Below, one piece after another: positions 2,365 through 34,082 of a stretch of 64,000 nt of DNA; the stretch's first letter is position 1, and each line of letters begins with the position of its first letter. A model generated the notes under the pieces. It was not told where the DNA came from. It saw nothing but the letters and a program-made list of their open reading frames with translations, and searched no databases. Source of the stretch: Candidatus Micrarchaeia archaeon (GTDB lineage Archaea; Micrarchaeota; Micrarchaeia; CAILAH01); assembly GCA_038874595.1 (NCBI GenBank), contig JAVZCB010000001.1:132397-196396 (forward strand), read 5' to 3'. Made by a program: the position numbers and the translations under genes.

Positions 2365-2660
2365 TTAGAAGGAGAGAGGTGGGCGAAGCCCCCTTCCTCT
2401 CCTCTTATGGGGCTGCCCAGATTTCCACGCCTCTTCTCGTGCAGATTTTTTTATCCTGCAAAGAGAGGGCTTTGAACTGGGGTCTCCAACTTATCCGAAG
2501 AGATAAATCTCTTCAACCCATCCCAGAGGTTGAGAAGGGAGGGGCTCTGCCTCACCCATGAAGATCCACTTTGTTGTGGATACATCTCAACACCCCGAAG
2601 GGGTTGGGTTGAGAAGGGAGGGGCTCTGCCCCACCCTTCTCCCGAAGCTGGAAGCATACC
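2365..2660. repeat. GC-rich hairpin/direct-repeat region (possible second structured RNA)
   Basis: Two near-identical 30-bp direct repeats GGTTGAGAAGGGAGGGGCTCTGCC(T/C)CACCC at 2528-2557 and 2597-2626, and a related GAGAAGGAGAGAGGTGGGCGAAGCCCCCTTCCTCTCCTC hairpin at 2369-2412. Also hairpin CTCAAC-a-CCCC-GAAG-GGGG-ttgg-GTTGAG at 2568-2603. GC-rich relative to surroundings. Confidence 0.3.
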
Positions 2661-2715: not shown

Positions 2716-4086
2716 TTAGAGGGATTGATGCGCACCATACATCTCAATATCCTTTTTTATATCCTTAGATTTAGCGATTATACTTTTTAAATAGTTTGAC
2801 CTTTTTGCAATCTCATCATAGATTTTATTTTCTCCTACACCATTTGCAAACGCAATCTCCTCGATTATGCGCGACTTTGCAGGTGTACGCACAACAGTAT
2901 CCTTTTTTGGGTCGTACAAGTACAAATGCCGTATCATTATGGAGCCACGGCTCTCAGCCAGCTCGCACACTTCAACGACTTTCCTAACCTCACGCACCTT
3001 CCCATCACCATTAAATTTAAGGAACCTTCTTTGAACAATCACTAAGTCAATCGCATTAAAATCAGAGGGCATAACTTCATTGTAACGCAAACGGGATACA
3101 AGCTCTTTTGCACTATGCGCGTGCATAGTTGCATAACAGCCGCGGGCCTGGCCAGCATTCATGCTTTCAATCATTGCAAGTATCTCTTCTTTAGAGCGCA
3201 CTTCACCTATGATCACTCTATCTGGCCGCATACGGAGACTATCCTCTATCAGGTCTTTCATCTCAATCCCGAGCTGTGGGTTGGTCTTCATTTTGACCTG
3301 ATGTTTATGCGGTATTACTATCTCAGGTGTTTCTTCAAGGAGTATTATACGCTCACTTGGCGGTACAAAGGAGAACAGCGCATTCAACGTGGTAGTTTTA
3401 CCCGCAGCTGTATTGCCGCAAATTATTACATTTTTATCATTCTGGAAAACTGTCCATAAGAATGCGAGCAGGTCATAATTGTATCCAGTTTTAATCAGCT
3501 CACGTATAGTCAGGGGCGTTTTCTTGAACTTCCTGATTGTAAGCTCAAGGTCAGACACAGGCTCTATGGTTGCGTGCAATCTTGAGCCATCCGGCAGCAC
3601 AGCATTAAGCCGTGGATTCTGCAATGTTATTCGCCTACCAATTGTCCTGGACATTTTATTGATTATATCGATAATTGCTTCCCGCTCGATGAACATTACA
3701 TTAGTATCAAGCCATCCCTTTTCACGGTGGAATACAAATATTGGATTATCAAGACCTACAACCGCGATCTCCTCAAGCTCTTCATCTTCAAGCAAGTATG
3801 TAATCGGTCCGAACGCATACGTTGCAAGGTACGCCGCATCGGTAAGGTATGTTATCTGGTCTTCATCAGCACGAATATTATTTCTCTGCAGGTTTTGAAT
3901 CAGAAGCTTGTTAACAATCTTTTTAGCTGCGGCACCATTCTCAATAACTTCATCTTTAACGGTATCGCTGAATTCCTTGCATACATTGTTTATTACATCT
4001 ATCTCTTCAAGGCTTAGCTTCTGGACCGGAATTTTATACTGCCCACCGTCAATTACTTTCCATCCAATCCAAGACATTACGTACAC
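2716..4086 (-). CDS. type II/IV secretion-system ATPase (FlaI/ArlI / VirB11 / TadA family)
   Basis: Walker A GNTAAGKTTTLNAL, Walker B/His-box region RVIIGEVRSKE...GCYATMHAHS, 456 aa, typical of archaeal FlaI-like ATPases. Confidence 0.8.
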   Translation of the reverse strand: MYVMSWIGWKVIDGGQYKIPVQKLSLEEIDVINNVCKEFSDTVKDEVIENGAAAKKIVNKLLIQNLQRNNIRADEDQITYLTDAAYLATYAFGPITYLLEDEELEEIAVVGLDNPIFVFHREKGWLDTNVMFIEREAIIDIINKMSRTIGRRITLQNPRLNAVLPDGSRLHATIEPVSDLELTIRKFKKTPLTIRELIKTGYNYDLLAFLWTVFQNDKNVIICGNTAAGKTTTLNALFSFVPPSERIILLEETPEIVIPHKHQVKMKTNPQLGIEMKDLIEDSLRMRPDRVIIGEVRSKEEILAMIESMNAGQARGCYATMHAHSAKELVSRLRYNEVMPSDFNAIDLVIVQRRFLKFNGDGKVREVRKVVEVCELAESRGSIMIRHLYLYDPKKDTVVRTPAKSRIIEEIAFANGVGENKIYDEIAKRSNYLKSIIAKSKDIKKDIEMYGAHQSL

Positions 4087-10034: not shown

Positions 10035-10985
10035 TCATAAGTCCCTAGCTGCTTTTTTGAGTGTTGACCAAAACTCTTTTTCTGCCTCTTTCCATTCATT
10101 TTCAATATCTGGGCGGAGTTTTGTGCGTGACAGTATTGTGTTGTGGAACAGTTCAAGCCCGCCAATTCTTCTTTCTAGGCCGAACGTTCCTGAAACCGAA
10201 GTTGCACGCGGAATTATATGTATTTTAAACATGTCCTTATCATATTCCGAAATCATCCAGTTTACCCCAATCCCTGAGGTTACCCGGGTATTAAGAAGGA
10301 ACTCTATGTTGTTTAGATTGTCTGTAGAAATACCATATAACCAGGCAACCCTTTCAAGATTATGATAGCCATACCCATACTGCACAACTTGCTCGTACAT
10401 TCTGCTTTGCACTAAACGGAAGAAGCCATCAAACAGCTGTGGGATAATGCTTCTAATATAATCGTACAAATCATTCCTGTGAATCTTACGCGTAACCGCA
10501 GTATCATACCCGTTGCAGAGTGTCAAATGCCCGCTTTCAACAAGAATAGGCACCGATAACGGGTCAGCTATCAGGTTTTCAGCAGATTTAAGCTCAAGAT
10601 ATTTTGACTCTTCCACCTTTGAACAAAGAAGATGGATGTGTAAGTGCCGTATCGTTTGCCCGGCAACAATCCCAAAATTGCCAAGTGCGGTTGCACCGGG
10701 GAAGTGTTGTAGTATTTTGCCGATAGCTGTGAACATACTATCAAACTGGTTCTTTGATATATTATGGAGTGTAAGCAGATGCTCTTTTGGTGTGATAATA
10801 CAATGTTGTGGTATATAGGGATACTTTGCCTTAAGTATCCTCCAGTTTGAGCTGCTTTCAACCAAAGGTTCCTCAGCAAGCGTACAAAATCTGCAATTTG
10901 ATATACCCTTGGTCTTCATCTCTCTTGATGTGAATGAAGGTGTTTTTTCGTCCCATCTAGGTGCCTTGATTTCATAGACGACCAT
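10035..10985 (-). CDS. HIT-superfamily nucleotidyltransferase, GalT branch (GalT / Ap4A phosphorylase-like)
   Basis: N-terminal CRFC zinc motif and histidine-triad-like TIRHLHIHLL; ~316 aa with a two-half architecture. Confidence 0.45.
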   Translation of the reverse strand: MVVYEIKAPRWDEKTPSFTSREMKTKGISNCRFCTLAEEPLVESSSNWRILKAKYPYIPQHCIITPKEHLLTLHNISKNQFDSMFTAIGKILQHFPGATALGNFGIVAGQTIRHLHIHLLCSKVEESKYLELKSAENLIADPLSVPILVESGHLTLCNGYDTAVTRKIHRNDLYDYIRSIIPQLFDGFFRLVQSRMYEQVVQYGYGYHNLERVAWLYGISTDNLNNIEFLLNTRVTSGIGVNWMISEYDKDMFKIHIIPRATSVSGTFGLERRIGGLELFHNTILSRTKLRPDIENEWKEAEKEFWSTLKKAARDL

Positions 10986-11095
10986 ACAGCGATATTATGA
11001 AAAATTATGGATTAAAAACATTTTGGTTTTTTGTGAAGCAAAAATGCGGGCGGCTGCGCCAAATAAAGCAGAATGGCCAAAAATAAAATGGGTAA

Positions 11096-11554
11096 TGGAC
11101 CTGCGCGGAATTGAACCGCGGATCTCTCGCGAAAGGGGGCATGTTTTCTTCAGCATTTTTGGCTGAAGATAAATTACCTTTCCCCACCAATCCCATATTT
11201 TAATGGAGTTGGGTCTTATGGGGCGTCTTTGGGCTTGCCAATGACGCGTCATTTTCCCGAAGGGAAAATGCACGGAGGGGGACACCTCCCCCTCACATTC
11301 CCAATACCTCAAAACCTCCTTAGAGGGGGAGTTGGGTCTTATGGGAGAGGGGGACACCTCCCCCTCACATTCCCAATACCTCAAAACCTCCTTAGAAGGG
11401 GAGTTGGGTCTTATGGGAGAGGGGGACACCTCCCCCTCACATTCCCAATACCTCAAAACCTCCTTAGAAGGGGAGTTGGGTCTTATGGGAGAGGGGGACA
11501 CCTCCCCCTCACCCATATGTGAGGCGAGCGTCTTAACCACTCGACTACAGGTCC
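11096..11554 (-). tRNA. tRNA-Val(CAC) interrupted by a 386-nt intervening sequence (11132-11517) at the canonical 37/38 position
   Basis: 5' exon (reverse complement of 11518-11554) GGACCTG-TA-GTCG-AGTGGTTA-AGAC-G-CTCGC-CTCACA. 3' exon (reverse complement of 11096-11131) C-GCGAG-AGATC-CGCGG-TTCAATT-CCGCG-CAGGTCC-A. Acceptor stem is perfect 7 bp; anticodon stem is CTCGC/GCGAG; T-loop is TTCAATT; U33 and A37 are in place; discriminator is A73. T-rich terminator follows the 3' end and a TATA-like TTTAATATT sits ~26-35 nt upstream of the 5' end. Confidence 0.7.
11275..11510. repeat. 72-bp tandem repeat, 3 full copies plus a partial fourth, inside the tRNA intervening sequence
   Basis: Units start at 11275, 11347, 11419 and 11491 with one substitution between copies. 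Each begins with the perfect palindrome GAGGGGG-ACACCT-CCCCCTC. A partial unit tail also occurs at 11205-11228. Confidence 0.9.
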
Positions 11555-11671
11555 ATTTGTATGGTTTTAAGGCGGCTTAATATTAAAATAATTCGCCGTT
11601 TCAGCATACCTGTGGCCACCTCAATAAGGATTAACAGCCTTCGCATAAGCAGAGATGAATTTGAAGGTATA

Positions 11672-12391
11672 ATGTCAAAGTATGGGATAACTCCAGTTTC
11701 ATGGTATAGTGGGGCGTACACTTCAGATTACGAAAATTTGAGTAAGACACTTGAGTACCAGCTTGGTTATTTTTATATCCAGTCACTTTCTTCAATGGTC
11801 CCACCACTCGTGCTTGACCCAAAACCTGGTGATGTCGTTCTTGACGTTGCAGCTGCCCCGGGCAGCAAATCAACGCAGTGCGCAATGCAAATGAACGATA
11901 AGGGAGTGGTTATTGCAAATGACGTGTCATATATGCGTTTGAAAAGCCTTGCAAGTCATATAAACCGGTTAGGGATAACTTGCATTGCAATGACCAATTT
12001 TGATGGCCGGAGGTTTCCTAAATTAGCATCGTTCAACAAAGTGCTATTAGATGCGCCGTGCAGTTCGATGGGCTCGCGCAGGTGCACAATCCAGCATTCA
12101 GATGGCAGGATAAAAAGCCTTGCGCATTTGCAGAAATCTCTGCTTTTGCGGGCATTTGACTTGCTTTCGCCTGAGGGCACACTTGTCTATTCAACATGCA
12201 CAACTACCATTGAAGAGAATGAGGGGGTTATTAATGCTCTCCTCGAAAAGAGGGATGATGTAGTTCTTGAAACACCCGTGCTGCCTTTCAGGCACGAAAA
12301 AGGCATTTCAGGCAATTCCGTAATAGATGAGAAGGTATGCAGGTTTACGCTTGATGAATCCTTTTTCATTGCAAAGCTGCGGAAGAGATGA
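11672..12391 (+). CDS. NOL1/NOP2/Sun-family RNA (cytosine-C5)-methyltransferase
   Basis: DVAAAPGSKSTQ (SAM motif I), LDAPCSSMG (motif IV PC), TLVYSTCT (motif VI TC). The ORF opens at 11561, but that would overlap the tRNA promoter, so the internal ATG at 11672 is preferred. Confidence 0.7.
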   Translation: MSKYGITPVSWYSGAYTSDYENLSKTLEYQLGYFYIQSLSSMVPPLVLDPKPGDVVLDVAAAPGSKSTQCAMQMNDKGVVIANDVSYMRLKSLASHINRLGITCIAMTNFDGRRFPKLASFNKVLLDAPCSSMGSRRCTIQHSDGRIKSLAHLQKSLLLRAFDLLSPEGTLVYSTCTTTIEENEGVINALLEKRDDVVLETPVLPFRHEKGISGNSVIDEKVCRFTLDESFFIAKLRKR

Positions 12392-12816
12392 TTATGGGCT
12401 CAAAATTCTCTGAATACATTAAATCGAGGTTCGGCATCATACTTAGCGATGAATTTGTAATAGAGGAGAGGACGAGCAAGGTTTACGTATATTCAAAATC
12501 TCTTGATCAATTAAGGTTAAGAAACATACACAGAAAAGGCATTCTTGCTGGCAAGCTCGATTCAATATACGGTGTCAAGCCATCACTGGATTTCGTGCTT
12601 GTGTTTGGGCATCTTGCACAGAAGAACAATATTACAATATCCGATGATGATGTGGTAAGGTTGTTTTCAGGTGAGAATATCGTGCTCAACTGCCAGCCAC
12701 AAAACTGCACAGATGGCCTTGTAATTCTCACATGCAGGAGAGGTATGGGTGTTGGTATTGCTTATAACAGGGGCGGTGTGCTGCAATCCCTTATCCCGAA
12801 AGACCGCCGGATATGA
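12388..12816 (+). CDS. hypothetical protein, possibly an RNA-binding (PUA-like) partner of the upstream methyltransferase
   Basis: 4-bp ATGA overlap with the methyltransferase; 142 aa; no catalytic motif. Confidence 0.3.
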   Translation: MIMGSKFSEYIKSRFGIILSDEFVIEERTSKVYVYSKSLDQLRLRNIHRKGILAGKLDSIYGVKPSLDFVLVFGHLAQKNNITISDDDVVRLFSGENIVLNCQPQNCTDGLVILTCRRGMGVGIAYNRGGVLQSLIPKDRRI

Positions 12817-23377: not shown

Positions 23378-24691
23378 GTGGTGTATATGGTTAAAAAGCA
23401 GGAACTTAAGCGTGAACTGGGCCTGTTCCAAGTTACAATGGCAGGTGTTGGATATATTTTAGGTGCAGGTATTTACGTGCTAATTGGTTTAGCTGCGGGC
23501 TATGCAGGTAATGCAACGTGGATTTCTTTCTTGTTAGGTTCTTTTGCAGCAATATTTACAGGACTTTCATATGCGGAATTGAGCTCTATGATGCCACGCA
23601 ACGCCAGTGAGTTCCTTTATGGAAAGCGCTCACTGGGTGAACTGTTCGGGTTTTTTGGGGCGTTTATGATGATGTTTTCAGCCATACTTGCATCAACGTC
23701 AGTGGCGCTTGGGTTTGCAAAGTATTTTTCATCGATGTTTGGTACGGACTCTATCGTACTGATTGCAGCAGGCATTATCATTTTGCTTACATACATTAAC
23801 TGGAAGAGCATAAAGGGCAGCTCAAACCTTAACATATTGTGTACTTTTGCAGAACTCGGAGGTCTGCTCATAATAATTGCGCTTGCATTGTTATATGGCA
23901 GTTCAGTTGACTTATTTGAGATGCCGAACGGCTTTGGTGGTGTGTTTAAGGGTGCTGCATTGGTGTTCTTTGCATACCTCGGGTTTGAAGGGCTGGTTAA
24001 GTTGGCAGAAGAGACAAAAGAGCCACATAAAACAATTCCACAGGCGCTTGTTCTCTCAATAATAATAACTTCGCTGGTATATATTGCAGTGGCAATTTCA
24101 GCAGTAAGTGTACTTGATTGGCATGAGCTTGCCGCATCAAAAGCACCATTGGCGGATGTTGCCTCAAAAGTTATGGGAAGTAATGCGTTTATACTTCTAA
24201 GCATAATTGCACTGTTTTCAACAGCCAACACTGTATTGATGGGGCTCGTGACATCTTCTCGCGGGCTTTACGGCCTTGCAACAGAATTCAAAAAGATAGG
24301 TGTTTTTGCAAGAGTGGGCAATACGGGCACACCAACCAACGCAGTTGTTATTACTGCCATCGTTGCAATATTGTTTTTGCTTATAGGGAGCATTTCTATT
24401 GTAGCGGAGCTTACAAACTTTACAATATTCATGACTTTTATTATAGTAAACCTATCTGTAATATTCCTCCGGTTAAAGGAACCACGAGCCAAGAGGCCGT
24501 TTAAAGTGCCGCTTAGCATTGGGCGTGTGCCTATACTGCCCGTGCTTGGGATTCTTACAGTTATATTCCTAACACTTAATCTTGAACCGTATGTTATCAT
24601 AGGTGGGATAATTTTTAGCCTGCTTGTAGTGCCTCTTTATTATTTTATTAGGAATCACGGTGGCAGAACAAAAAATAGGAAAACTATTTAA
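23378..24691 (+). CDS. APC-superfamily amino acid permease
   Basis: GLFQVTMAGVGYILGAGIYVLIG N-terminal consensus; 12 TM helices. Confidence 0.8.
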   Translation: MVYMVKKQELKRELGLFQVTMAGVGYILGAGIYVLIGLAAGYAGNATWISFLLGSFAAIFTGLSYAELSSMMPRNASEFLYGKRSLGELFGFFGAFMMMFSAILASTSVALGFAKYFSSMFGTDSIVLIAAGIIILLTYINWKSIKGSSNLNILCTFAELGGLLIIIALALLYGSSVDLFEMPNGFGGVFKGAALVFFAYLGFEGLVKLAEETKEPHKTIPQALVLSIIITSLVYIAVAISAVSVLDWHELAASKAPLADVASKVMGSNAFILLSIIALFSTANTVLMGLVTSSRGLYGLATEFKKIGVFARVGNTGTPTNAVVITAIVAILFLLIGSISIVAELTNFTIFMTFIIVNLSVIFLRLKEPRAKRPFKVPLSIGRVPILPVLGILTVIFLTLNLEPYVIIGGIIFSLLVVPLYYFIRNHGGRTKNRKTI

Positions 24692-24714
24692 GATATACTT
24701 TTTCCAAAAAATCT

Positions 24715-25299
24715 ATGAAGTTAAGGTATAGATATCCATCGGATTTAACAGCAAAGAACTGTAATGAGTTAGCTACTAACAGAAAAGAGTACGTAAAAGC
24801 ACTGGCTTCAAGGTATTTCAGGCTCCAGCATGGGAAAAGCATACTTTTAAAAAAACAAAAAGAATACAATAACGATCAGCAGAATCAGGATATATTGACA
24901 TTGCAATTGTGGAAAAATCACAATAAGATCCGTAAGCAGGAAGCGATGTTGCTCGCTACAATTAAAAATAAATCAGACTTCTATTCTGCTTTGCAAGGTG
25001 TTTATGACGATTACAAAAATCACGAGGTAAAACTCAAGGAATCCCTATTGAAAAATCATATTATGTATGCGATCATAATGTTCCAGATATTTCTTAATGG
25101 TATAATTGTTTATTGTAAAGAGCTTTCAGCAAAAGTGGCAATTTTTATTGGGGGTGCGGGAGTTTTTACAATATTTGCAGGAATGAGCAGTTTTTTGGAT
25201 TCTCTGCATAAAAATAAGGATTATAAATTACTTGAAACAACCTATAACCGAACAATTGAAAAGTTTACAGAGATTTTTAAAGATAGAGGGTTTATATAG
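24715..25299 (+). CDS. hypothetical membrane protein
   Basis: AT-rich, N/K-rich, two C-terminal TM segments; no motif. Confidence 0.3.
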   Translation: MKLRYRYPSDLTAKNCNELATNRKEYVKALASRYFRLQHGKSILLKKQKEYNNDQQNQDILTLQLWKNHNKIRKQEAMLLATIKNKSDFYSALQGVYDDYKNHEVKLKESLLKNHIMYAIIMFQIFLNGIIVYCKELSAKVAIFIGGAGVFTIFAGMSSFLDSLHKNKDYKLLETTYNRTIEKFTEIFKDRGFI

Positions 25300-25555
25300 A
25301 GAAATAAATTAAGAAATTCTAATATTTTATTAGAATTGATAGAATCAAGCAATTTTTTAGATTTTCTAAAAAGATATGGGTTTTATGTTTTAAAACTGTT
25401 TTAATCTATACCAACTGTTGATTTTTTTGGTAAACACAATGGGATAAAATACTTTATTGATAAACCGATTTGGAAGCTATAAACTCCTTTTTAAAAAGTT
25501 GATTTACCATTATGATGTTTAATGAAAATTTTTGATAGTACAACCTTGCTTGCAG

Positions 25556-25728
25556 CCCAAACTGGACCAGAAACAATGAAAACAGCTGGTGAGAAGGGTT
25601 TTTGTTTACTGCATCAGTAACTGTGCCAGCATTGCTGAAAATGCTGTTTACTTAAGCAGTTTACGATTTTTTACTTACTAAAATTTACGACGGAGAAAAG
25701 AGTTTGCATCTTTGGTCCAGTTTTGGCC
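25556..25728. repeat. element bounded by a ~19-bp near-perfect inverted repeat
   Basis: GCCCAAACTGGACCAGAAA at 25556-25574 versus TCTTTGGTCCAGTTTTGGCC at 25709-25728, flanking ~135 bp of non-coding sequence. Confidence 0.3.
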
Positions 25729-25879
25729 TGTGTACTAGGGGTAAATGCAAAAATAGTTATAAAAAATATTTTTGAATATTATATTAGATTTTCTAATAGT
25801 TTTTTAGAAAACAATATTCAAAAATAATATTCAAAATAATTAAAAGATAGAAAACCCAAAGGGTGCTAAAACTTTTTCT

Positions 25880-26275
25880 CTATCTCTTTAAAGAGCCAAG
25901 TGCAAATTTAATAAACTCGCTTAATGTGCCACCACCATTATGGTTCCACACTTTTGCAAGCTCCTTGTACTCATCCACTTCTTTTTTGTATTCTGAAAGG
26001 TGCTTTTCATATTGCGCTCTCTCATGTACTCCGGGGACCCAATGATAAGGGCATGCGCGGGAGTTTAAGCTTTGAAACCCTTCCTTTGTGGGCGAGAATG
26101 GATAGGTGCGGCAGAGCATAGGCCTGCTCTGATAGATTGAACAGCCCTCTGAAAAATAAAACAGGCATATGCGGTTATTATGAAGCTCTTTTTCCATATA
26201 AGCGGGATAGGCAGGGCCAATCCGCTTGTTATAAAGCTCTTTCCACTTAAGCACGATTAAAGAGCTCCCCTTCAA
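25880..26275 (-). CDS. YkgJ/UPF0153-like Cys-cluster protein, C-terminal motif only; TTG start per ORF track
   Basis: CLFYFSEGCSIYQSRPMLCRTYPF matches the family's C-terminal half. The N-terminal CxxCxxCC half was not found in frame. Confidence 0.35.
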   Translation of the reverse strand: MKGSSLIVLKWKELYNKRIGPAYPAYMEKELHNNRICLFYFSEGCSIYQSRPMLCRTYPFSPTKEGFQSLNSRACPYHWVPGVHERAQYEKHLSEYKKEVDEYKELAKVWNHNGGGTLSEFIKFALGSLKR

Positions 26276-26525
26276 TAAGGACAGCTGGCTCTGGGCGTTC
26301 CCGGCCTTCCTGCTCTGGGATCACGTGCAAAAAGTCTTCAGGTTCTAATCCAGTGGCTTTCTTTATTCTAAGAATATCATATGGATTAACACAAACCTTT
26401 AATTGTGTGTAATACCTTCCACAATGAAATCATCAGGTCGTTTTAATTATATTGACGATTTCCATGGGGTTATATAATATATTCTAACATAATGTTAGAA
26501 TTTCTAAATCTTTTTGAATAGATGC

Positions 26526-28736
26526 TTATTCAATTCGCATCAATAATGAATTTGAAACAACAGATATTGAGCTAAAAACCATTGCTATTCCAGCAATTAC
26601 TGGATTAAGAAGAAATCCATTAATTGGGTAAAGAACACCCATGGCAACCGGAATACTTACTATATTGTAGAAAAATGCCCAGAACAGATTTTGTTTTATC
26701 TTCTCATAGACGTACTTGCTGAGCTGTACCGCCGTAACAAGATCTGTCAAATTGTTCTTTACAAGAACAACGTTACCACTTTCTATGGCAACATCTGTTC
26801 CAGCACCTATTGCAACCCCTATGTTCGCCTGAGCAAGTGCAGGCGCATCGTTTATGCCATCTCCAACAAATGCAACCTTTTTCCCTGAAGACTGTAATTC
26901 CCTTACCCTAGCAGCCTTCTCATGTGGGAGTACGTTTGAAAGCACCTCATCTATTCCAGCCTCTTTTGCAATTGCCTGTGCAACCTGCTTATTATCTCCT
27001 GTTATCATCATGGTTTTATATCCAAGAGAGTGAAGTTTTGCTATTGTCACACGTGAATCTTCCTTTATTGTATCTGCTATCGCAAGCAACCCTATAATCC
27101 TATTGTTGACTGCAACAAAAACAACCGTTTTACCTTGTAATTCAAGCTTACGATATATTGATTCATAAACAATTCCCTTAATCTTGTGCATGCTCATTAA
27201 AGCAATGTTCCCAATTAGTACCTTCTTTCCTGAAACAACTGCTGCAATCCCATACCCTTCAATAGCATTAAAGTGAGAGGACTTAAGGATACGAACTTTT
27301 GCGTCCTTTGCTTTATTAACAATTGCCTGAGCAAGAGGATGCTCTGAGTTTTTTTCTGCTGATGCTGCGATTATAAGCAGTTCTTTCTGAGAACCTATAA
27401 CTGGGATGATATCCGTAACAACTGCCTTCCCTTTAGTTATCGTACCTGTCTTATCCAGAATAATCGTGTCAACCTTGTGAAGGTTTTCAAGACTCTCAGC
27501 ATCTTTGAAAAGAATACCTTTATCAGCACCCTTACCAGTACCGAGTACAATGGCAGTTGGAGTGGCAAGACCCATAGCACACGGACACGCGATTATGATG
27601 GTTGCAACAAATGTGGAGAGCGCAAATGTTAGAGATTGACCTACAACAAAGTACCAATATATAAATGCAGTAAGTGCTAAAACTAGTACCATCCATACAA
27701 AATATCCAGAAACGATATCTGCAAGTTTCTGTACTGGTGCCTTACTGCTTTGTGCATTTTCAACAAGATGTATTATTTGAGCGAGCAAGGTCTCGCTTCC
27801 AACCTTACTAGCCTTAAACTTAAATGACCCAGTTTTGTTTGTAGTTGCACCTATTACAGTATCACCTTTCTTCTTATATACAGGGAGACTTTCACCAGTA
27901 ATCATGCTTTCATCAATACTGCTTGCACCCTCTAAAATAATACCATCGACGGGTATTTTTTCTCCTGGCCTGACAATGACTATATCTCCAACTTGCACAT
28001 CACTTACATTTACTTCAACTTCCTTACCTCTTCGTATGACCCTTGCCATCTTTGGTTGTAATCCGATCAACTTTTTTATTGCTTCAGAGGTCTTTCCCTT
28101 AACAACTGCCTCCATATACTTTCCGATCGTGATAAACGTGATAATAAGTGCAGATGTCTCATAGTACATACTACCTTGTATTATATTAAAACCAGTTAGT
28201 ATGCTATACAAATATCCTGTCCCTACTCCTAATAGAACAAGACTATCCATTCCGGGCATCATGCTCAAAAAGCTGTGCACACCTCTAATAAAAGTCTCTC
28301 GGTTTATATAAAGAACAATTGATGTAAGAATAAACTGTGCAAGTGGAGTACCAGATATTATCATCTCTGGATATGTGATAGCTACGGTTCCATGCAACAT
28401 CTCAGGCAAAGCAAGGAGTAATATAAGGAGTGTGAGTATTATAGAATGAATTGCTCGTTGTTTCATATTCTGCATTTCACGTTCACGGGCCCTTTTTTCA
28501 ATATCTTCAAGAACAGGTTGTGCCTCTTCCTTTATATTGGTCTTATAACCGAGACTCTCAATCGTACTAGATATTGTGCGTAAATCCGCTGGTGCATCAT
28601 ACTCCACTAATGCTGTGTTGTTTACAAAGCTTACATTTGCCGAAGCCACTCCGGCTATTTTCCTCAACTTGTTCTCTATGTTTACTGCACAACTCGTACA
28701 ATGCATACCACTTATGTATACTTTTAACTTTTTCAT
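26526..28736 (-). CDS. copA: copper-exporting P1B-type ATPase
   Basis: N-terminal HMA GMHCTSC, CPC motif in [27 protein letters not shown]. Confidence 0.9.
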
Positions 28737-28768
28737 AGAATCATCTCTAGTTATCTAGAATTACAATT

Positions 28769-29845
28769 CTAACTACGTATACTGCAAGCGCGAGCATCAC
28801 TATCGCAGCAATCTCCACCACTAGCACAACAACCACAACCTGCAACGGAAGAAATTTGTGTTGGAGTAGACACTTTCTCACTGATAACCTTTGCAGGATA
28901 TGTTTTAAATACTTCAATTCCAAGGATCTGGTCTTTGTTTGCTATTCTATCATCATATTCAATATAGAACTTATTTGGAGAATCAAAACGCACATTGAGT
29001 ATGCCTTCAAGCCTCTTTAATTCGCTTGTTATAAGTGGTGCATGACCAGGGCAGGGAATAGATACTTCCAAGTATATTGACCTAAATTGCTGTTTGGAAG
29101 TTAGTGAGGTTGGTGCTGAAACTCTACTCTGTGCATTGGCAAATGTTGCTGTTGTAATTGGCTGTTGCACAGCTTGGATATTTGCAAGTATTGGAAATAT
29201 AAATAAGAACATTAAGAGATTAACTCCTACTGTGGTACCATACATTATTGCAAGATATTTCCACTTCTTTTTTGCACCCACCCACGAAAGCAAACCATTC
29301 TTGTGCAGGTACAATACAGATGAAACTGTCGCAAACCCAACTGAGATTAACAACAAAACATAAAAGAAGTGCTGGTTGAGCAATAGAGACTTAAAAAGAG
29401 ATGTCAGAAATGTAACTCCAAGTATTGAACCTATTATAAATGCAATGCAACCAATGTGCGGAATAAGCCCATATGTTATACCTTCTAGCAAGGGTGTGTT
29501 TTTTTCATTTGAATCGAGGTTTGCTTGTGTTTCTATCTTATCCGCGCCAATAGTGTATCCAAGAGATACTACAGTCTTTTTTATCACATCTATGGTTATA
29601 TACTGTGGATCAAAAGTTACCGTTGCTTTTTCATCTAAAAGATCTACGTTCACTGCCTTCACTCCCTCAAGACCTCTAATGGTATACTCTATCCTATCCA
29701 CACAACTCTTACAACGCATACCTTTTATCGAAAAGGTTTCCGTTTGCATGTTTTCGCTCATGGTTACAAATAAGCTGAAACTGCAGTTAAATATTTGTAA
29801 CAGAAAAATGAAACTGCATATATATTTCACTGAAACTAGTTTCAT
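28769..29845 (-). CDS. heavy-metal-associated (HMA) domain membrane protein with a Cys-rich C-terminus
   Basis: HMA1 GMRCKSC, ~4 TM helices, a second ferredoxin-like segment with CPGH, C-terminal GCGCCASGGDCCDSD. Start may be the internal MSENMQ. Confidence 0.5.
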   Translation of the reverse strand: MKLVSVKYICSFIFLLQIFNCSFSLFVTMSENMQTETFSIKGMRCKSCVDRIEYTIRGLEGVKAVNVDLLDEKATVTFDPQYITIDVIKKTVVSLGYTIGADKIETQANLDSNEKNTPLLEGITYGLIPHIGCIAFIIGSILGVTFLTSLFKSLLLNQHFFYVLLLISVGFATVSSVLYLHKNGLLSWVGAKKKWKYLAIMYGTTVGVNLLMFLFIFPILANIQAVQQPITTATFANAQSRVSAPTSLTSKQQFRSIYLEVSIPCPGHAPLITSELKRLEGILNVRFDSPNKFYIEYDDRIANKDQILGIEVFKTYPAKVISEKVSTPTQISSVAGCGCCASGGDCCDSDARACSIRS

Positions 29846-29849
29846 AATC

Positions 29850-30323
29850 TTACTTTCGGAGGAGGATCATGTTTGTCATTCCGCGCCTTCTTCTTTCAAT
29901 GAGACCTTTCCCCTCTAGCTTATCAAGCAGACGGGAAATACGCACCTTGCCAAACCCTGTCTTATCAACCAGTTCGGATTGGTAAATTGCACCATTTGAT
30001 TTAATAATTAGTTTAATTATCTCCTTTTCTTCACCAGAAAGTCTTGAATATAAGTCTTCCTGCTTGTTTGGTGCCGCAACATTAAATTCAGCTTTCTTTT
30101 TATCACTGAAAAAAATAAGATACAATCCAATTAAAATTATCACTACCATTATACCTAAACCTATGTTGGTCTGGAATTCTATTGTATCCCACATAGGGCA
30201 TGTAGGTCCATGTGTACATGATTGATTTACTATATCAGTTAATGCTGTGTTAAAAGAATATACAATATAACCTATAAGTATTGATATGAACACTATTAGA
30301 TATCCGATTGTTCGATTATCCAT
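29850..30323 (-). CDS. membrane-embedded winged-helix transcription regulator (putative metal sensor)
   Basis: TM1, loop CTHGPTCPMW, TM2, then a cytoplasmic wHTH ending GKGLIERRRRG. First gene of the copper operon. Confidence 0.5.
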   Translation of the reverse strand: MDNRTIGYLIVFISILIGYIVYSFNTALTDIVNQSCTHGPTCPMWDTIEFQTNIGLGIMVVIILIGLYLIFFSDKKKAEFNVAAPNKQEDLYSRLSGEEKEIIKLIIKSNGAIYQSELVDKTGFGKVRISRLLDKLEGKGLIERRRRGMTNMILLRK

Positions 30324-30379
30324 TTTGATCAGTATTTTTAGCCTTTATATGTTTTTATTGTTTATTTAGATCCCTTACA

Positions 30380-30399
30380 GGTGTCAATGAGTTGACACC
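30380..30399. promoter_or_regulatory. perfect palindrome GGTGTCAA-tgag-TTGACACC upstream of the copper operon
   Basis: 8-bp arms with a 4-nt spacer, 57-76 bp upstream of the regulator ATG. A TATA-like CATATAAA (minus sense) lies at 30344-30351. Confidence 0.35.
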
Positions 30400-30565
30400 G
30401 GACAGAGACTCACCTCTATTGTGATTAGAAGGTTATCTAAATATTATTTTCCTTAAGAGATTTTTGAGTATTTATATCGAACAACACCTATATAATAAAA
30501 TTTTGATATGTTGTTTCACAATTAATAGTTCTTTCTGAAGATAGAAGTTCTTTGATGAGAACTCT

Positions 30566-31207
30566 CTAGTAAACTTTAGCATTTTTAGTAGTAAGTGTTT
30601 CATGCCATAATTGTAGTGGTCTTACCTTTGAAACTTCTCTTTTAATGTGTGAAAAACACTTCTTTTCTTCGGCATTGAGATGGCCGCGTGTAAGGGTTAC
30701 CTGCCCCTTTCCCCTTGCCTTATTAAACGAAAACGTAAATCCAAACCCTATAAAGAAATCTCTCAAAAGACCATATTTTTCCTTGTCATATGTTTTACTT
30801 ATGGGATTATACCCTACATCCTCCCCAAAAATTTCCTCAACAATAAAAGCAAAATTGAATTTGTGCAATACATCAAGCATTTCCCTCATAAAATATGCAC
30901 CTTCCTGTGTACTAAACAGCTCTGGCCGCATATTAAAGTTAGGGTTTGGCGGGGAGTGGAATCCACACTTGTCTGATTTTACCAGAAGAATCCCAGCCTG
31001 TTTGCTTTCCATTGCCTCATCCCAGATTTCAACACTGAGCATTCTCCTTTCTTTTTTTGTGATTTTCCCAGTGTAGCTAAAATCTTTTGCGATTACAAGA
31101 TAATTCCTGCCACGGACATCTATTTTTTTAGGATAGCCGTCTGCAGGAACAGCATCAAGGTACGCAAAGAATTCCTCATTGGTTACTTCGTCACTACAGC
31201 TTCCCAT
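30566..31207 (-). CDS. hypothetical protein
   Basis: 213 aa; glycine-rich segment FIGFGFTFSFNKARGKG near the C-terminus; no confident assignment. Confidence 0.3.
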   Translation of the reverse strand: MGSCSDEVTNEEFFAYLDAVPADGYPKKIDVRGRNYLVIAKDFSYTGKITKKERRMLSVEIWDEAMESKQAGILLVKSDKCGFHSPPNPNFNMRPELFSTQEGAYFMREMLDVLHKFNFAFIVEEIFGEDVGYNPISKTYDKEKYGLLRDFFIGFGFTFSFNKARGKGQVTLTRGHLNAEEKKCFSHIKREVSKVRPLQLWHETLTTKNAKVY

Positions 31208-31291
31208 GTATGAATATAGATGTAAAAACTATATAAAAACGCTGAATTCTTCTAAGTAGGCTTATATTATTTGAATAGCCTTTATATCAAT

Positions 31292-31633
31292 ATGCGCTGG
31301 GTTCTAAGGTCAAAAATACACAATGCAACTGTGACAGAATCTAATCTTAACTACATTGGAAGTATCACAATTGATAAGGCGCTTATTGAAAAGGCTGGTT
31401 TTATCCCTGGAGAAAAGGTGACCGTTGCAAGCACAACTACAGGAGCACGGCTTGAAACCTATATAATAGAAGGAAAAAAGAATTCCGGTGTAATTGCAAT
31501 GAACGGCCCTGCAGCACATATAATAAAAGCAGGGGAACACGTCGTGATTATGGCGTTTGAGCTCGCTTCAAAGAAAATCAAGCCAAAAGTTATACTAGTT
31601 GATGAGCACAACCGTTTTTTGAGACAACTGTAA
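31292..31633 (+). CDS. panD: aspartate 1-decarboxylase, pyruvoyl-dependent (bacterial PanD type)
   Basis: LRSKIHNATVTESNLNYIGSITID (Gly-Ser self-cleavage site), ETYIIEG, NGPAAH. Start taken at MRWVL. Confidence 0.8.
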   Translation: MRWVLRSKIHNATVTESNLNYIGSITIDKALIEKAGFIPGEKVTVASTTTGARLETYIIEGKKNSGVIAMNGPAAHIIKAGEHVVIMAFELASKKIKPKVILVDEHNRFLRQL

Positions 31634-31643
31634 AAATGGCCTC

Positions 31644-32123
31644 TCATTTAAAGCCCACTAGCATGCTTCCCACACCAATGAACATAAGAAACAGTGCCAA
31701 TCCAGTACACACACCCTCATTAAAGGGTGATTCACTTTTGAATGCTGCCGCAGGCAATACATCATTAAGCTGTGCCTCACAATCGGCAATACACTTCTGG
31801 CGTTGTATGTTTGCATTTGACATTACATTATCAAGGCAGCACTTTTGTAATGAGTCCCAGCATACAGTTATACAAGTATCCCAGTTTGAGCTGTTGCACA
31901 TCTCCCTGCACGCATAGAAGTCTGAGGGGCATTTTTCTTTTGGGCTAACTACACTGTCAGGACATCGCATTGGTGATGTGTCTGCCACCCCCCAGTGTCC
32001 ATAATTTGCCTTTTGTGTTTCAATATAGTCGTAATATTCTGTTTGGCATTTTGCAGCACATTCATTAGCATAAGCTAAAGAGAATGAAACAACAACCAAC
32101 ATAAGAAAGAGCTGCCTTATCAC
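31644..32123 (-). CDS. secreted Cys-rich protein with a C-terminal TM anchor
   Basis: Signal peptide, 16 Cys, C-terminal hydrophobic segment GLALFLMFIGVGSMLVGF. Confidence 0.35.
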   Translation of the reverse strand: MIRQLFLMLVVVSFSLAYANECAAKCQTEYYDYIETQKANYGHWGVADTSPMRCPDSVVSPKEKCPSDFYACREMCNSSNWDTCITVCWDSLQKCCLDNVMSNANIQRQKCIADCEAQLNDVLPAAAFKSESPFNEGVCTGLALFLMFIGVGSMLVGFK

Positions 32124-32173
32124 GCTATAAAATTAGGTAGTAAAATTAATAACTATATATAAAACCAAACGGC

Positions 32174-32647
32174 TTATTCGTCCATTTTTTCTACAATTTT
32201 ACTTACCAATTCTTCTCTATCGCAATTTAGGCCGTATTTCTTAATTATCTCATCTGCTGCTCCGTAAAAAACGGATCCATTATGCAGCAAAAGATTGCGC
32301 TCTCCCTCTATATATCTCTGATGCAGCTTTTCCATTTCGGGAGTGATCTTAACATTAACCCCTACTAGATTGTTGTTTTTATCATAGCACATTATTGTTG
32401 CATAGTTGCCATCTTTGTTGCTAGTCAAAGATTGCTCTTTGGTGTTAGATAATGGATTTTCAGGATTGTTTTGGCACGCCGTTGTAACCATTAAAGACAT
32501 TAATGCAATAGCGGCACCAGTACGTGCTTTTCTTAGTATGCGTTTTACTATGCCTTCAGGAGCAGGTTTTTTTTGCATTATCACCTGCGAAAACGTATTT
32601 TTCTCTGGTTGGCCTTCATTATGCAAAGTGTTTTGTTTGTGATTCAT
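32174..32647 (-). CDS. hypothetical lipoprotein-like protein
   Basis: TM/signal segment ending TTAC (lipobox-like). Confidence 0.3.
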   Translation of the reverse strand: MNHKQNTLHNEGQPEKNTFSQVIMQKKPAPEGIVKRILRKARTGAAIALMSLMVTTACQNNPENPLSNTKEQSLTSNKDGNYATIMCYDKNNNLVGVNVKITPEMEKLHQRYIEGERNLLLHNGSVFYGAADEIIKKYGLNCDREELVSKIVEKMDE

Positions 32648-32702
32648 GAGGATATTTTATAAGAACACATATATATAATTTTCTTTTAAGCTGTTGTGAT
32701 TC

Positions 32703-33269
32703 TTGTGGTATAAAAAAGAAATCTTTATATATTACAAAAATAAGAATAAATACATGTCTGAGATGCAAAATCAATTGAAGCCCAAATATCTCAAGAAAAC
32801 TGTTGCGAGCGTGCAGGAATTCAAAAGAAAATTCCTTGAATTCGATAAGGATACTGCAAAAAAAGAGCTTGATAACATCAAAGAGATTTTTTATTATGAG
32901 AAAAAGGCAGCTGCAAGAAAGAGTGAACGGCTGTACAAAATAGAGAATATCTTAGAAACGATAGAAAAAAATTCATTTGAGAATTTTATATGTGCTTCAG
33001 TATGCCTTCTTGGCTATTATGGCTCTGCAGGATTTCTTGTTGGGTCGATTGTAAGTTATCTGAAGGGAGATGTTGATACTTTTAAGAATTTGTTTAAGAT
33101 AAGCGTTTTATTTGGTGGAGGGGCTACAGTTTTCTTAGGTGTATGCAGACTAATCGAGCAAGCCGCAAATTATTTAATAAGAAAGTGTACTGATAAAGAA
33201 TTGGAAATTTACGAGGAAATTCGCAGGACGGATAAAGAGATTCATAATATTGAGAAAGAAATCAAATAA
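32703..33269 (+). CDS. hypothetical membrane protein with coiled coil
   Basis: K/E-rich helices and two central TM segments. Confidence 0.3.
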   Translation: MWYKKEIFIYYKNKNKYMSEMQNQLKPKYLKKTVASVQEFKRKFLEFDKDTAKKELDNIKEIFYYEKKAAARKSERLYKIENILETIEKNSFENFICASVCLLGYYGSAGFLVGSIVSYLKGDVDTFKNLFKISVLFGGGATVFLGVCRLIEQAANYLIRKCTDKELEIYEEIRRTDKEIHNIEKEIK

Positions 33270-34082
33270 TTACATTATTTTTCGTATTTCTTCAATCCGC
33301 TTTTCAGCAGGCACTGATACCTTATAGAAATCCCAGAATATATCCTTTACAAATCGTATCCATATCGGGTCCTTTATTTCGTAATATATAGTTTTCTTAA
33401 GTGCTGCCGGCGTTTCAACAAGCCTTACCAACTTATCATCAACTATTGCGCCTCGGAGCGGCTGGTCAACGTGCCGTATATCTATTGCATCCATCCCAAA
33501 TTTTTTATTTAGCATAAGAAGCTGCTCAACCCGATTAAGGGACTTTGTATCTATCCGTCCAAGCATATGTATTGTTGTGCCTCTCTCAATCACATCAACA
33601 ATTGTTTTCATAACCTTTTTTCCTTTTTCGGTACTTTGTACCCACGAGAAATCTCCAGAGAATGAAAGGTATTCATTTTTGGCAAGTTGCAAGAGGTTAT
33701 TTATGTCTTCATGGCCTTTTTCTATAAATGTGGTCTCCTCAGCCTCCCAAAATGCCTTTTTCATTTTCTCATCAACATACTGATACAATTCGAACGGCGA
33801 AAAATCCGTTTTATTGTTAGCGTTCATAATTCTCTTATATAGAAATTTCATCAATTGGCCCTTGTTTTTTGCATCCGCAGTTATAAATACAATTTTTAGA
33901 CCTCCTCTTAAACCGTTTTTGAAGACATGTGTAGATATCGACCCATCTGTTTTACACAATTCATCAATGTATTTATCAGCCGTTTTCCATGAAACTTCTA
34001 ACGAGTTAGCGATTTCTATTATAGAATGCGGCCTTTGTGCCAGGAGTTGTTTTATTTTATCTATTTTATCCGGTGAGAGCAT
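33270..34082 (-). CDS. TrmB-like transcriptional regulator (N-terminal wHTH plus C-terminal sensor domain)
   Basis: N-terminal IIEIANSLEVSWKTADKYIDEL HTH; length and architecture fit TrmB. Confidence 0.4.
   Translation of the reverse strand: MLSPDKIDKIKQLLAQRPHSIIEIANSLEVSWKTADKYIDELCKTDGSISTHVFKNGLRGGLKIVFITADAKNKGQLMKFLYKRIMNANNKTDFSPFELYQYVDEKMKKAFWEAEETTFIEKGHEDINNLLQLAKNEYLSFSGDFSWVQSTEKGKKVMKTIVDVIERGTTIHMLGRIDTKSLNRVEQLLMLNKKFGMDAIDIRHVDQPLRGAIVDDKLVRLVETPAALKKTIYYEIKDPIWIRFVKDIFWDFYKVSVPAEKRIEEIRKIM

Follow-up and report, generated by a model that had tools for sequence, protein, structure and literature searches.

The 64-kb stretch of DNA analyzed here (the window) comes from a Candidatus Micrarchaeia archaeon, a DPANN archaeon of the class that also contains ARMAN-2, and it carries on its minus strand a gene for tRNA-Val(CAC) in two halves, 11554..11518 and 11131..11096, broken between tRNA positions 37 and 38. 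We propose that the sequence between the halves is fairly probably a composite of two nested introns of the bulge-helix-bulge (BHB) type, the outer one inflated by repeats. An earlier note on this DNA had described the two minus-strand halves, the 386 nt between them, and the break at 37/38, and those facts of sequence all held. The gene is laid out as follows, in window coordinates.

11518..11554, minus strand: 5' exon, tRNA positions 1 to 37, reading GGACCTGTAGTCGAGTGGTTAAGACGCTCGCCTCACA
11132..11517, minus strand: whole intervening sequence, 386 nt, between A37 and C38, the canonical 37/38 position
11096..11131, minus strand: 3' exon, positions 38 to 73, reading CGCGAGAGATCCGCGGTTCAATTCCGCGCAGGTCCA, that is, C38 plus GCGAGAGATCCGCGGTTCAATTCCGCGCAGGTCCA
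11575..11595, minus strand: AT-rich TATA-like element CGAATTATTTTAATATTAAGC, about 21 to 41 nt upstream of the tRNA, putative promoter
11079..11088, minus strand: two T-runs TTTTATTTTT, 8 nt downstream of A73, putative archaeal oligo-T terminator

The 5' exon holds the 5' strand of the acceptor stem, the D arm, the 5' strand of the anticodon stem (CUCGC), and the loop sequence CUCACA. The 3' exon contributes C38, the 3' strand of the anticodon stem (GCGAG), the variable loop, the T arm, and the 3' strand of the acceptor stem; its last base is A73, and CCA is not encoded. When joined, the halves give a 73-nt sequence that ARAGORN calls as tRNA-Val(cac) with a clean cloverleaf, in agreement with the identity given in the earlier note. 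The same program, which that note had recommended as a check, called no tRNA in the unspliced 64-kb window, and an Rfam scan of the unspliced window returned no tRNA and no match at the gathering threshold. Each half occurs once in the window with up to six mismatches allowed, and a search with the pattern GGTTCRANTCC found a single occurrence there. The TATA-like element CGAATTATTTTAATATTAAGC sits within the first codons of a divergent Nop2-like gene on the opposite strand, and a near-identical sequence lies upstream of the tRNA in two related loci (L003 and L016, introduced below). We infer that this element is the promoter of the tRNA gene and that the T-runs TTTTATTTTT are its oligo-T terminator.

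The divergent gene encodes a Nop2/RsmB-type methyltransferase and starts 7 nt from the tRNA. The loci of relatives (given L numbers here) were found by anchoring on this adjacent Nop2-like methyltransferase, together with one genome scan (5 loci) and one metagenome scan (1 locus) that used the conserved 5' half. What they carry at position 37/38 is given below.

L001: same species, flanks 99.7 to 99.9% identical; intron of 170 nt
L013: Nop2 identity 73%; intron of 200 nt
L003 / L012: Nop2 identity 77%; intron of 176 nt
L004, L005: Nop2 identity 70%, protein identical in both; introns of 175 nt and 99 nt
L016: L004-like; intron of 227 nt
L006 / L015: Nop2 identity 64%; intron of 185 nt
L011: Nop2 identity 55%; intron of 16 nt
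L018: Nop2 identity 56%; no intron

At least six other Micrarchaeia lineages carry both halves at syntenic positions, with Nop2 identities of 55 to 99%, and the 5' exon is the same or one base off in L001, L003, L004, L005, L006, L013, L015, L016, and L011. In an alignment of six distinct spliced sequences, stem pairing is complete (20 pairs, 120 of 120 cells), and six stem pairs have changed on both sides, a number matched by none of 500 shuffles. The pairs with double changes include 3-70, 6-67, and 7-66, which bridge the intron, and 27-43. Because the stems all pair and double changes bridge the intron, the halves evolve as one functional tRNA. Conserved and covarying exons argue strongly against a pseudogene and imply that the long intervening sequences are removed, and the tRNA-Val(CAC) gene is, judged from these sequences, very probably functional. 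The interior of the intron turns over fast among the relatives, and the motifs at the splice junctions are kept. In the intron-less tRNA-Val(CAC) of L018 (1387-1459, plus strand), the 3' strand of the anticodon stem reads GUGAA, with a G30-U40 wobble; this GUGAA resembles a GUGAG found in the window intron, described below.

In a canonical 37/38 intron, residues 32 to 35 pair with the four intron bases that precede the final two. The related loci show two kinds of junction. The introns of L011, L004, L005, and L016 end in URRG-AA|C-GCGAG (UGGG-AA|C-GCGAG in the 16-nt intron of L011) and form a canonical BHB, which lies 0.0 kcal/mol from the minimum-energy fold when folding is constrained at the cloverleaf stems only. 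Those of the window, L001, L013, L003, and L006/L015 end in CCCU-UN|C-GCGAG. With the second kind, positions 32 to 35 (CUCA) oppose CCCU at the 3' end of the intron, and no single BHB, strict or relaxed, holds both true cuts (A37|U and U|C38) of the 386-nt intron. An ordinary single intron would have one BHB with both splice sites in it, and the 386-nt sequence does not; under the nested reading, the inner and the outer intron each gain a BHB of their own in which the cuts are correctly placed. An unrestricted scan of the window, L001, L013, and L003 puts the true 3' site of this second kind into a proper BHB whose 5' site, RGGG-AA|A, lies inside the intron. The predicted components in the window are the following.

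11132..11179, minus strand: inner intron, 48 nt, AGGUAAUUUAUCUUCAGCCAAAAAUGCUGAAGAAAACAUGCCCCCUUU, its 3' end being the true 3' splice site
11131..11185, minus strand: inner BHB motif, abutting the anticodon stem
11180..11517, minus strand: outer intron, 338 nt, ending in ...GGUGGGGAA and starting at the true 5' splice site

The cuts of the inner intron fall at 375|376 and 423|424 in pre-tRNA numbering, and a hairpin, CUUCAGC-CAAAAAU-GCUGAAG, lies within it. In the inner BHB, the central helix H pairs GGGG (11185..11182) with CCCU (11137..11134), the 5' and 3' bulges are AAA (11181..11179) and UUC (11133..11131), and the flanking helix h' pairs GGUA (11178..11175) with UGCC (11141..11138). The window and L001 share this arrangement, GGGG-AA|A-GGUA...UGCC-CCCU-UU|C, around 48 nt with 4 bp each in H and h'. 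L013 has GGGG-AA|A-GAU..CUGCC...GGCAG..AUC-CCCU-UU|C around 129 nt (H of 4 bp, h' of at least 5), and L003 has AGGG-AA|A-AUGCAUCCGC...GCGGAUGCAU-CCCU-UG|C around 52 nt (H of 4 bp, h' of 10). The central helix and bulges are conserved, and the sequence of h' is unrelated between lineages. When the intron was shuffled with its last six bases fixed, the observed h' was reached in 0 of 2,000 shuffles for L003, 11 for L001, 45 for L013, and 55 for the window. Relative to the cloverleaf-constrained optimum, the inner BHB lies at 0.0 (L001), 0.5 (L013), 0.8 (L003), and 1.2 (window) kcal/mol, in line with the 0.0 of the genuine canonical BHBs in L004, L005, and L011. Another pairing, between RAGGGG near the 5' end of the intron and CCCCUU at its 3' end ("helix K"), was considered as a recognition element and rejected; it sets the cut sites face to face and not 4 bp apart, and it is a G-run/C-run pairing with no true covariation.

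Removal of the inner intron joins ...UGGGGAA to C38-GCGAG, giving UGGG-GAA|C-GCGAG, and this joint would recreate the L011-type, ancestral 3' junction UGGG-AA|C-GCGAG. With the inner intron removed in silico from the window, L001, and L013, an outer BHB can be drawn in which h is the 5-bp anticodon stem, H is 4 bp (CUCA with UGGG), and the bulges are CA|U (3 nt) on the 5' side and GAA|C (4 nt) on the 3' side; it lies 3.4 (window), 1.7 (L001), and 0.5 (L013) kcal/mol above the constrained optimum. An unbiased recursive search took out, in at most two steps, every BHB intron whose 4-bp helix is perfect and whose flanking helix has 4 bp or more. It found a one-step route to the mature tRNA in L011, L005, L004, and L016. 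For the window, L001, and L013 there was a single route, with the inner intron removed first and the outer one second, and there was no route for L003, where H has a mismatch, or for L006. Since the G-run of the inner motif overlaps the UGGG of the outer one, the two motifs are mutually exclusive and would act in sequence.

On these grounds we regard as fairly probable a composite 37/38 intron made of two nested BHB-type introns, the outer one inflated by a recent, strain-variable tandem triplication. The whole gene would be transcribed as a single precursor, and the splicing endonuclease would cut the inner BHB first, releasing 48 nt. An RtcB-type ligase would then join ...UGGGGAA to C38-GCGAG and restore the ancestral 3' junction, which would pair with residues 32 to 35 and form a relaxed BHB with A37|U in one bulge and A|C38 in the other. 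A second round of cleavage and ligation would free the 338-nt outer intron and leave the mature 73-nt tRNA.

Several points weigh against this reading. L006/L015 share the CCCU-UA|C end and yet have no convincing inner BHB, strict or relaxed, only an AGGG/CCCU pairing with no flanking h'. The G- and C-runs permit alternative pairings, and the AGGG-GG|A-GGUGU of each repeat module also forms a BHB with the true 3' site, which is why the shuffle statistic for the window reached only 55 of 2,000. The outer BHB is relaxed and not strict: its 3' bulge is 4 nt long in the window, L001, and L013, and in L003 its central helix has one mismatch. The comparative set is small, and the repeat copy number of 3.3 given below comes from a single assembly. 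Finally, it is from computed structures that we infer splicing, the order of inner before outer, and the intermediates.

Most of the length of the putative outer intron is repeated sequence. Its segments, and the junction-like sites within them, are these.

11275..11512, minus strand: tandem array of a 72-nt unit, 3.3 copies, 99% identity, 238 nt, from repeat finding
11223..11274, minus strand: species-specific segment of 52 nt with two hairpins, also in L001
11180..11222, minus strand: older, diverged copy of the 3' part of the unit (CCCAUAAGACCCAACUCC...UAUGGGAUUGGUGGGGAA), repeat family D2
11436..11450, minus strand: pseudo 3' junction 1, UAU-UGGG-AA|U-GUGAG, apparent relic with CGCGAG changed to UGUGAG
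11364..11378, minus strand: pseudo 3' junction 2, UAU-UGGG-AA|U-GUGAG, apparent relic
11292..11306, minus strand: pseudo 3' junction 3, UAU-UGGG-AA|U-GUGAG, apparent relic
11436-11443, 11364-11371, and 11292-11299, minus strand: AUGUGAGG, once per repeat unit, found by complementarity

Each unit consists of a G5/C5 hairpin (GAGGGGGA-GGUG-UCCCCCUC), CCCAUAAGACCCAACUCC, a small stem-loop, and UAUUGGGAAUGU. The hairpins of the 52-nt segment are CAUUUUCCC-UUCG-GGGAAAAUG and GCGUC..GACGC, and the G-run in the diverged copy at 11180..11222 serves the inner and then the outer central helix of the proposed motifs. The first 76 nt of the window intron plus UGUGAG align end to end with the 99-nt intron of L005 plus CGCGAG, with 69 of 79 positions identical and a score of 68, against -22 +/- 9 for shuffles. 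Because of this end-to-end alignment, we take each 72-nt unit to be an ancestral complete intron together with its first six exon bases, since mutated; the fusion between a copy and the G5/C5 hairpin that opens the next unit lies at a microhomology, GAG. The array is real and polymorphic between strains. Over 8.85 kb of flanks, 11 substitutions separate L001 from the window, and its intron has exactly three units (216 nt) fewer. L061, an independent short-read contig with the exact methyltransferase allele of the window, carries on beyond the first hairpin with unit sequence before it breaks off, and the L002 contig breaks inside the hairpin. L003 and L016 also hold internal duplications, of 35 nt and 21 nt respectively, each present twice, and module content differs between L004 and L005, and among L007, L008, and L009, with the neighboring protein identical in each case. 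The outer intron would accordingly have grown by three extra 72-nt tandem copies of a once complete, canonical intron of about 76 nt plus six exon bases. The copies probably came from duplication at the DNA level and unequal exchange between the 20-nt G5/C5 hairpins, and they would be cargo, not needed for splicing.

Each pseudo-junction and the true 5' site can be drawn as a perfect hBHBh' (H of 4 bp, h of 5, h' of 3), matched by 5 of 2,000 shuffles. Enforcing a pseudo-junction with minimal constraints in the full transcript cost 9 to 11 kcal/mol, and enforcing it together with h' cost 18 to 28 kcal/mol in full and nascent transcripts. They are disfavored because AUGUGAGG pairs with CCUCACAU in a continuous helix across the 5' site: CCUCACAU is made up of the anticodon loop and the first intron base, AUGUGAGG complements it perfectly over 8 nt, and this pairing dominates how the nascent transcript is predicted to fold. 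The pseudo-junctions, considered as active sites or decoys for splicing, were demoted on the cost of 9 to 28 kcal/mol, and we read them as masked relics that would reveal the origin of the unit. They may occasionally be used; the 5' site would then be retained, and the mature tRNA could still be made. A bolder version, which we offer only as an unlikely possibility, is that the locus records the multiplication of a BHB intron in place, a second intron arising at the 3' cleavage site of the resident one, followed by tandem copying, with the relics still sometimes used. Use of the relic junctions would amount to recursive splicing and would give (circular) intron RNAs of 76, 148, and 220 nt. Were that version true, these RNAs would carry AUGUGAGG, complementary to the anticodon loop CCUCACAU, with possible regulatory or sponge-like activity, and the locus would supply the first description of a BHB tRNA intron that is both nested and recursively spliced, as well as a natural system for the study of intron gain.

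The earlier note had offered two readings of the insert, a very large BHB-spliced intron or an element of a new kind that resides in a tRNA intron. The first was right in kind (position 37/38, BHB motifs), but the predicted anatomy is one of two nested introns of 48 and 338 nt, and folding of the junctions, as that note had advised, gave two nested motifs where no single motif joins both sites. It had also called 386 nt extreme, which stands for the length, but it missed the 72-nt tandem repeat and with it the recent triplication that varies between strains; its statement that each exon half is present once holds for whole halves and overlooks the three UGUGAG pseudo-exon relics. The comparison of orthologous tRNA-Val loci that it had suggested proved informative, the exons being near-identical and covarying and the intron absent, 16 nt, or 99 to 227 nt long. 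The long tRNA-Trp intron of Haloferax is about 105 nt. Archaeal tRNA introns of 13 and 25 nt are among the published examples (PMC3239211), and our literature search found no figure for a maximum length.

Other accounts of the locus have to be weighed against the nested reading. In one of them, the 386 nt would be removed in a single step: a local helix-bulge-helix at the 3' site (anticodon stem / UU|C / CCCU-GGGG) would be recognized, the 5' site would be cut independently, in a relaxed bulge-helix-loop (BHL) or mature-domain-dependent manner, and the ends would be ligated directly, with no ...GGGGAA-C38 intermediate. The 3' half of the inner motif, CCCU-UN|C-GCGAG, is indeed the best conserved feature (window, L001, L013, L003, and L006/L015), L006/L015 have no inner 5' site with h', and the ARMAN-2 enzyme cleaves relaxed hBH and BHL substrates (PMC3239211). 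However, in the unspliced precursors of L001, L013, and L003 the true 5' site lacks an acceptable bulge-helix context, its score being reached by 859, 268, and 403 of 2,000 shuffles, respectively, and a proper context appears once the inner intron is removed. The conserved RGGG-AA|A, the bulge exactly 4 bp from the 3' bulge, and an h' that differs across three lineages would also be left unexplained, and we consider single-step removal unlikely. Far less probable is a split gene of the Nanoarchaeum kind, with two separate transcripts that are joined in trans, and it ranks lowest of all the alternatives in our estimate. A TATA-like motif, TAATTTAT, does lie about 45 nt upstream of the 3' half, and in the L007 lineage a 5' half stands without a 3' half next to it, but the motif, tried as an internal promoter for the 3' half and rejected, belongs to the window alone and has no conserved counterpart in L003, L013, or L006. 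The halves are always adjacent and co-oriented (window and eight relatives), and by inspection no long leader/trailer duplex can form, only 7 bp. Decay of the gene into a pseudogene that gathers repeats, with GUG codons read by another tRNA-Val, would fit the very fast turnover of intron content and the 5' half found alone in the L007/L008/L009/L014 lineage, and tRNA-CNN genes are described as dispensable in some archaeal clades (PMC6000648). That is hard to reconcile with halves that stay near-invariant where the neighboring protein is 55 to 77% identical and whose 120 stem cells all pair, with compensatory double changes across the intron at 3-70, 6-67, and 7-66, with junction motifs that are conserved while the interior is not, and with an intact TATA-like element upstream and T-run downstream. 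Decay is, in our judgment, quite improbable.

The remaining alternatives concern the insert itself. A mobile or selfish element in the anticodon loop (a miniature inverted-repeat transposable element or insertion sequence remnant, an integrated element, or a group I or homing intron) would account for introns that differ between strains with an identical neighboring protein (L004/L005; L007/L008/L009) and for an att-like 54-nt duplication at the tRNA 3' end in L003, and intron transposition has been proposed for Thermoproteales (cited in PMC4090602). But the intron ends show no terminal inverted repeats and no target-site duplication, in keeping with what had been noted before, that this is not a simple mobile element. 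The window has no match to a group I or II ribozyme core at the Rfam gathering threshold, and a scan of 10950..11700 with E values up to 5 gave sub-threshold noise only and no sRNA or snoRNA family. The repeat modules were found nowhere outside the intron in about 165 kb of window and related sequence. A viral origin was rejected, there being 37 matches to a 15-mer, none with module context, and 0 viral matches to the tRNA half. Tandem duplication and deletion of resident sequence explains the variation, and a mobile element is very improbable; the idea of a new kind of element in a tRNA intron finds no conserved open reading frame (ORF), Rfam family, terminal repeats, copies elsewhere, or viral matches to build on. 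A length that is in part an assembly artefact, the array or its copy number having been mis-assembled and the true intron being about 170 nt as in L001, would agree with the lack of extra copies in L001 and with short-read contigs (L002 and L061) that break inside the array, three 72-nt copies being longer than a typical read. Yet after the first hairpin L061 continues with the unit-type UCCCAUAA and not with CGUGC as L001 does, and at least one full unit is therefore real. The copies also differ, one substitution marking one unit, and analogous internal duplications occur in L003 and L016. We hold an inflated array to be improbable and keep to two nested introns with an amplified outer one as the preferred reading.

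Two further identities were considered for the intron. A protein-coding repeat (72 nt being 24 codons, and a 181-amino-acid ORF spanning 10995..11540 on the minus strand) was rejected; the relatives do not share the frame, every frame of L004, L006, and L016 being interrupted by stops, and the ORF overlaps the two halves of the tRNA. A box C/D guide RNA was looked for by inspection, which found no C box RUGAUGA in the intron, and by Rfam, which gave no match.

Among known systems, twintrons of Euglena plastids and fungal organelles follow the same logic, the inner intron leaving before the splice signals of the outer one assemble. Theirs are self-splicing group II/III or group I ribozymes, whereas here we propose protein-spliced BHB introns, which are unrelated to them in chemistry and in recognition. 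Canonical 37/38 BHB introns, processed by EndA and RtcB, share the site, the normal cloverleaf, and 3-nt bulges 4 bp apart, and that arrangement is present at the same site in L011, L004, L005, and L016; the window differs in needing two motifs, one nested in the 3' bulge of the other. ARMAN-2 (Ca. Micrarchaeum acidiphilum), from the same host class, has a high load of tRNA introns, relaxed motifs included: 56% of its tRNA genes are disrupted (PMC3239211; PMC12397907), and its three-unit epsilon2 endonuclease cleaves strict and relaxed BHB motifs in vitro (PMC3239211). For broad-specificity endonucleases, bulges of 1 to 4 nt have been described (PMC3239211; PMC12397907). The ARMAN-2 tRNA-Pro has two close introns (53/54 and 59/60), and a tRNA-Gly of the relative L007 also has two. 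The published introns are short and at separate positions, however, whereas here two would share one position, the inner exactly at the 3' cleavage site of the outer, and the outer intron carries tandem copies of itself. Close genomes likewise differ in intron number or content at one tRNA locus in Caldiarchaeum, where heterogeneity in a tRNA-Thr intron at the population level has been attributed to an integrating element with a recombinase (Sugahara 2012, PMC3293823), and in Thermoproteales, where intron gain has been attributed to transposition between tRNAs (cited in PMC4090602). The present locus, in contrast, points to duplication and deletion in place, and no associated recombinase or dispersed copies were found. 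The tRNA-Trp intron of Haloferax and other Euryarchaeota carries a box C/D guide RNA (PMC4090602) and is likewise unusually long, at 37/38, and internally structured; the window intron has neither RUGAUGA nor an Rfam match, and because its sequence is not conserved between relatives, an embedded functional RNA is argued against.

The locus is a variant of the known archaeal BHB mechanism and not a categorically new element. We found no description of nested BHB introns or tandemly amplified tRNA introns in the searchable literature, whose coverage is incomplete. If the nested reading is true, BHB splicing can be ordered, one excision making the substrate for the next. The one site presents what may be a datable series, from no intron through a 16-nt canonical intron to long, nested, and tandemly amplified ones, which bears on how archaeal tRNA introns arise and grow. 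There is a practical side as well: standard tRNA finders miss the gene, and annotation would record tRNA-Val(CAC) as absent from Micrarchaeia genomes. Nested or very long BHB introns may partly explain the "missing" tRNAs of DPANN genomes.

Some related loci deserve separate mention. L007 has a perfect tRNA-Val(CAC) 5' half at 2902-2938 (minus strand), in a lineage whose Nop2 is 62% identical, followed by about 290 nt with G5/C5-hairpin modules, AAGCCAACC-hairpin-GGUUUCCUUGGGA; the modules differ among L007, L008, and L009 although the neighboring protein is identical. No 3' half was found before the next genes in the L007/L008/L009/L014 lineage, in which two contigs end within the region, and ARAGORN in intron mode called no tRNA in L007 or L014. 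From its sequence, the locus of this lineage may be a split tRNA gene or a pseudogene. At about 2451-2613 (minus strand) of L007, a tRNA-Gly(UCC) with two introns, one of about 47 nt beside the anticodon and one of about 29 nt in the T-loop, was read by eye and was not seen by ARAGORN in intron mode. L003 contains a perfect 54-nt direct repeat (3603-3656 and 3679-3732, spaced 76 nt) made of the last 16 nt of tRNA-Val and 38 nt downstream, and it looks like the att-site scar of an element that integrated and was then excised, or like a local duplication.

The genes around the tRNA in the window are archaeal and encode a GGGP synthase, Elp3, a DUF373 protein, a HIT protein, and the Nop2/RsmB-type methyltransferase. 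The closest homologues of the methyltransferase are in Candidatus Micrarchaeia/Micrarchaeota metagenome-assembled genomes, and the genome-scan matches bear the same names. The methyltransferase gene occupies 11561-12391 (plus strand) and is followed by an overlapping ORF of 142 amino acids (12388-12816, plus strand), whose orthologue in L001 has a weak Methyltranf_PUA match; a PUA-like domain seems to be encoded as a separate gene that is kept in all relatives. Elsewhere in the window, positions 24001-34000 have a G+C fraction of 0.34 to 0.38, against 0.41 to 0.47 in the rest, and this stretch may be a horizontally acquired island.

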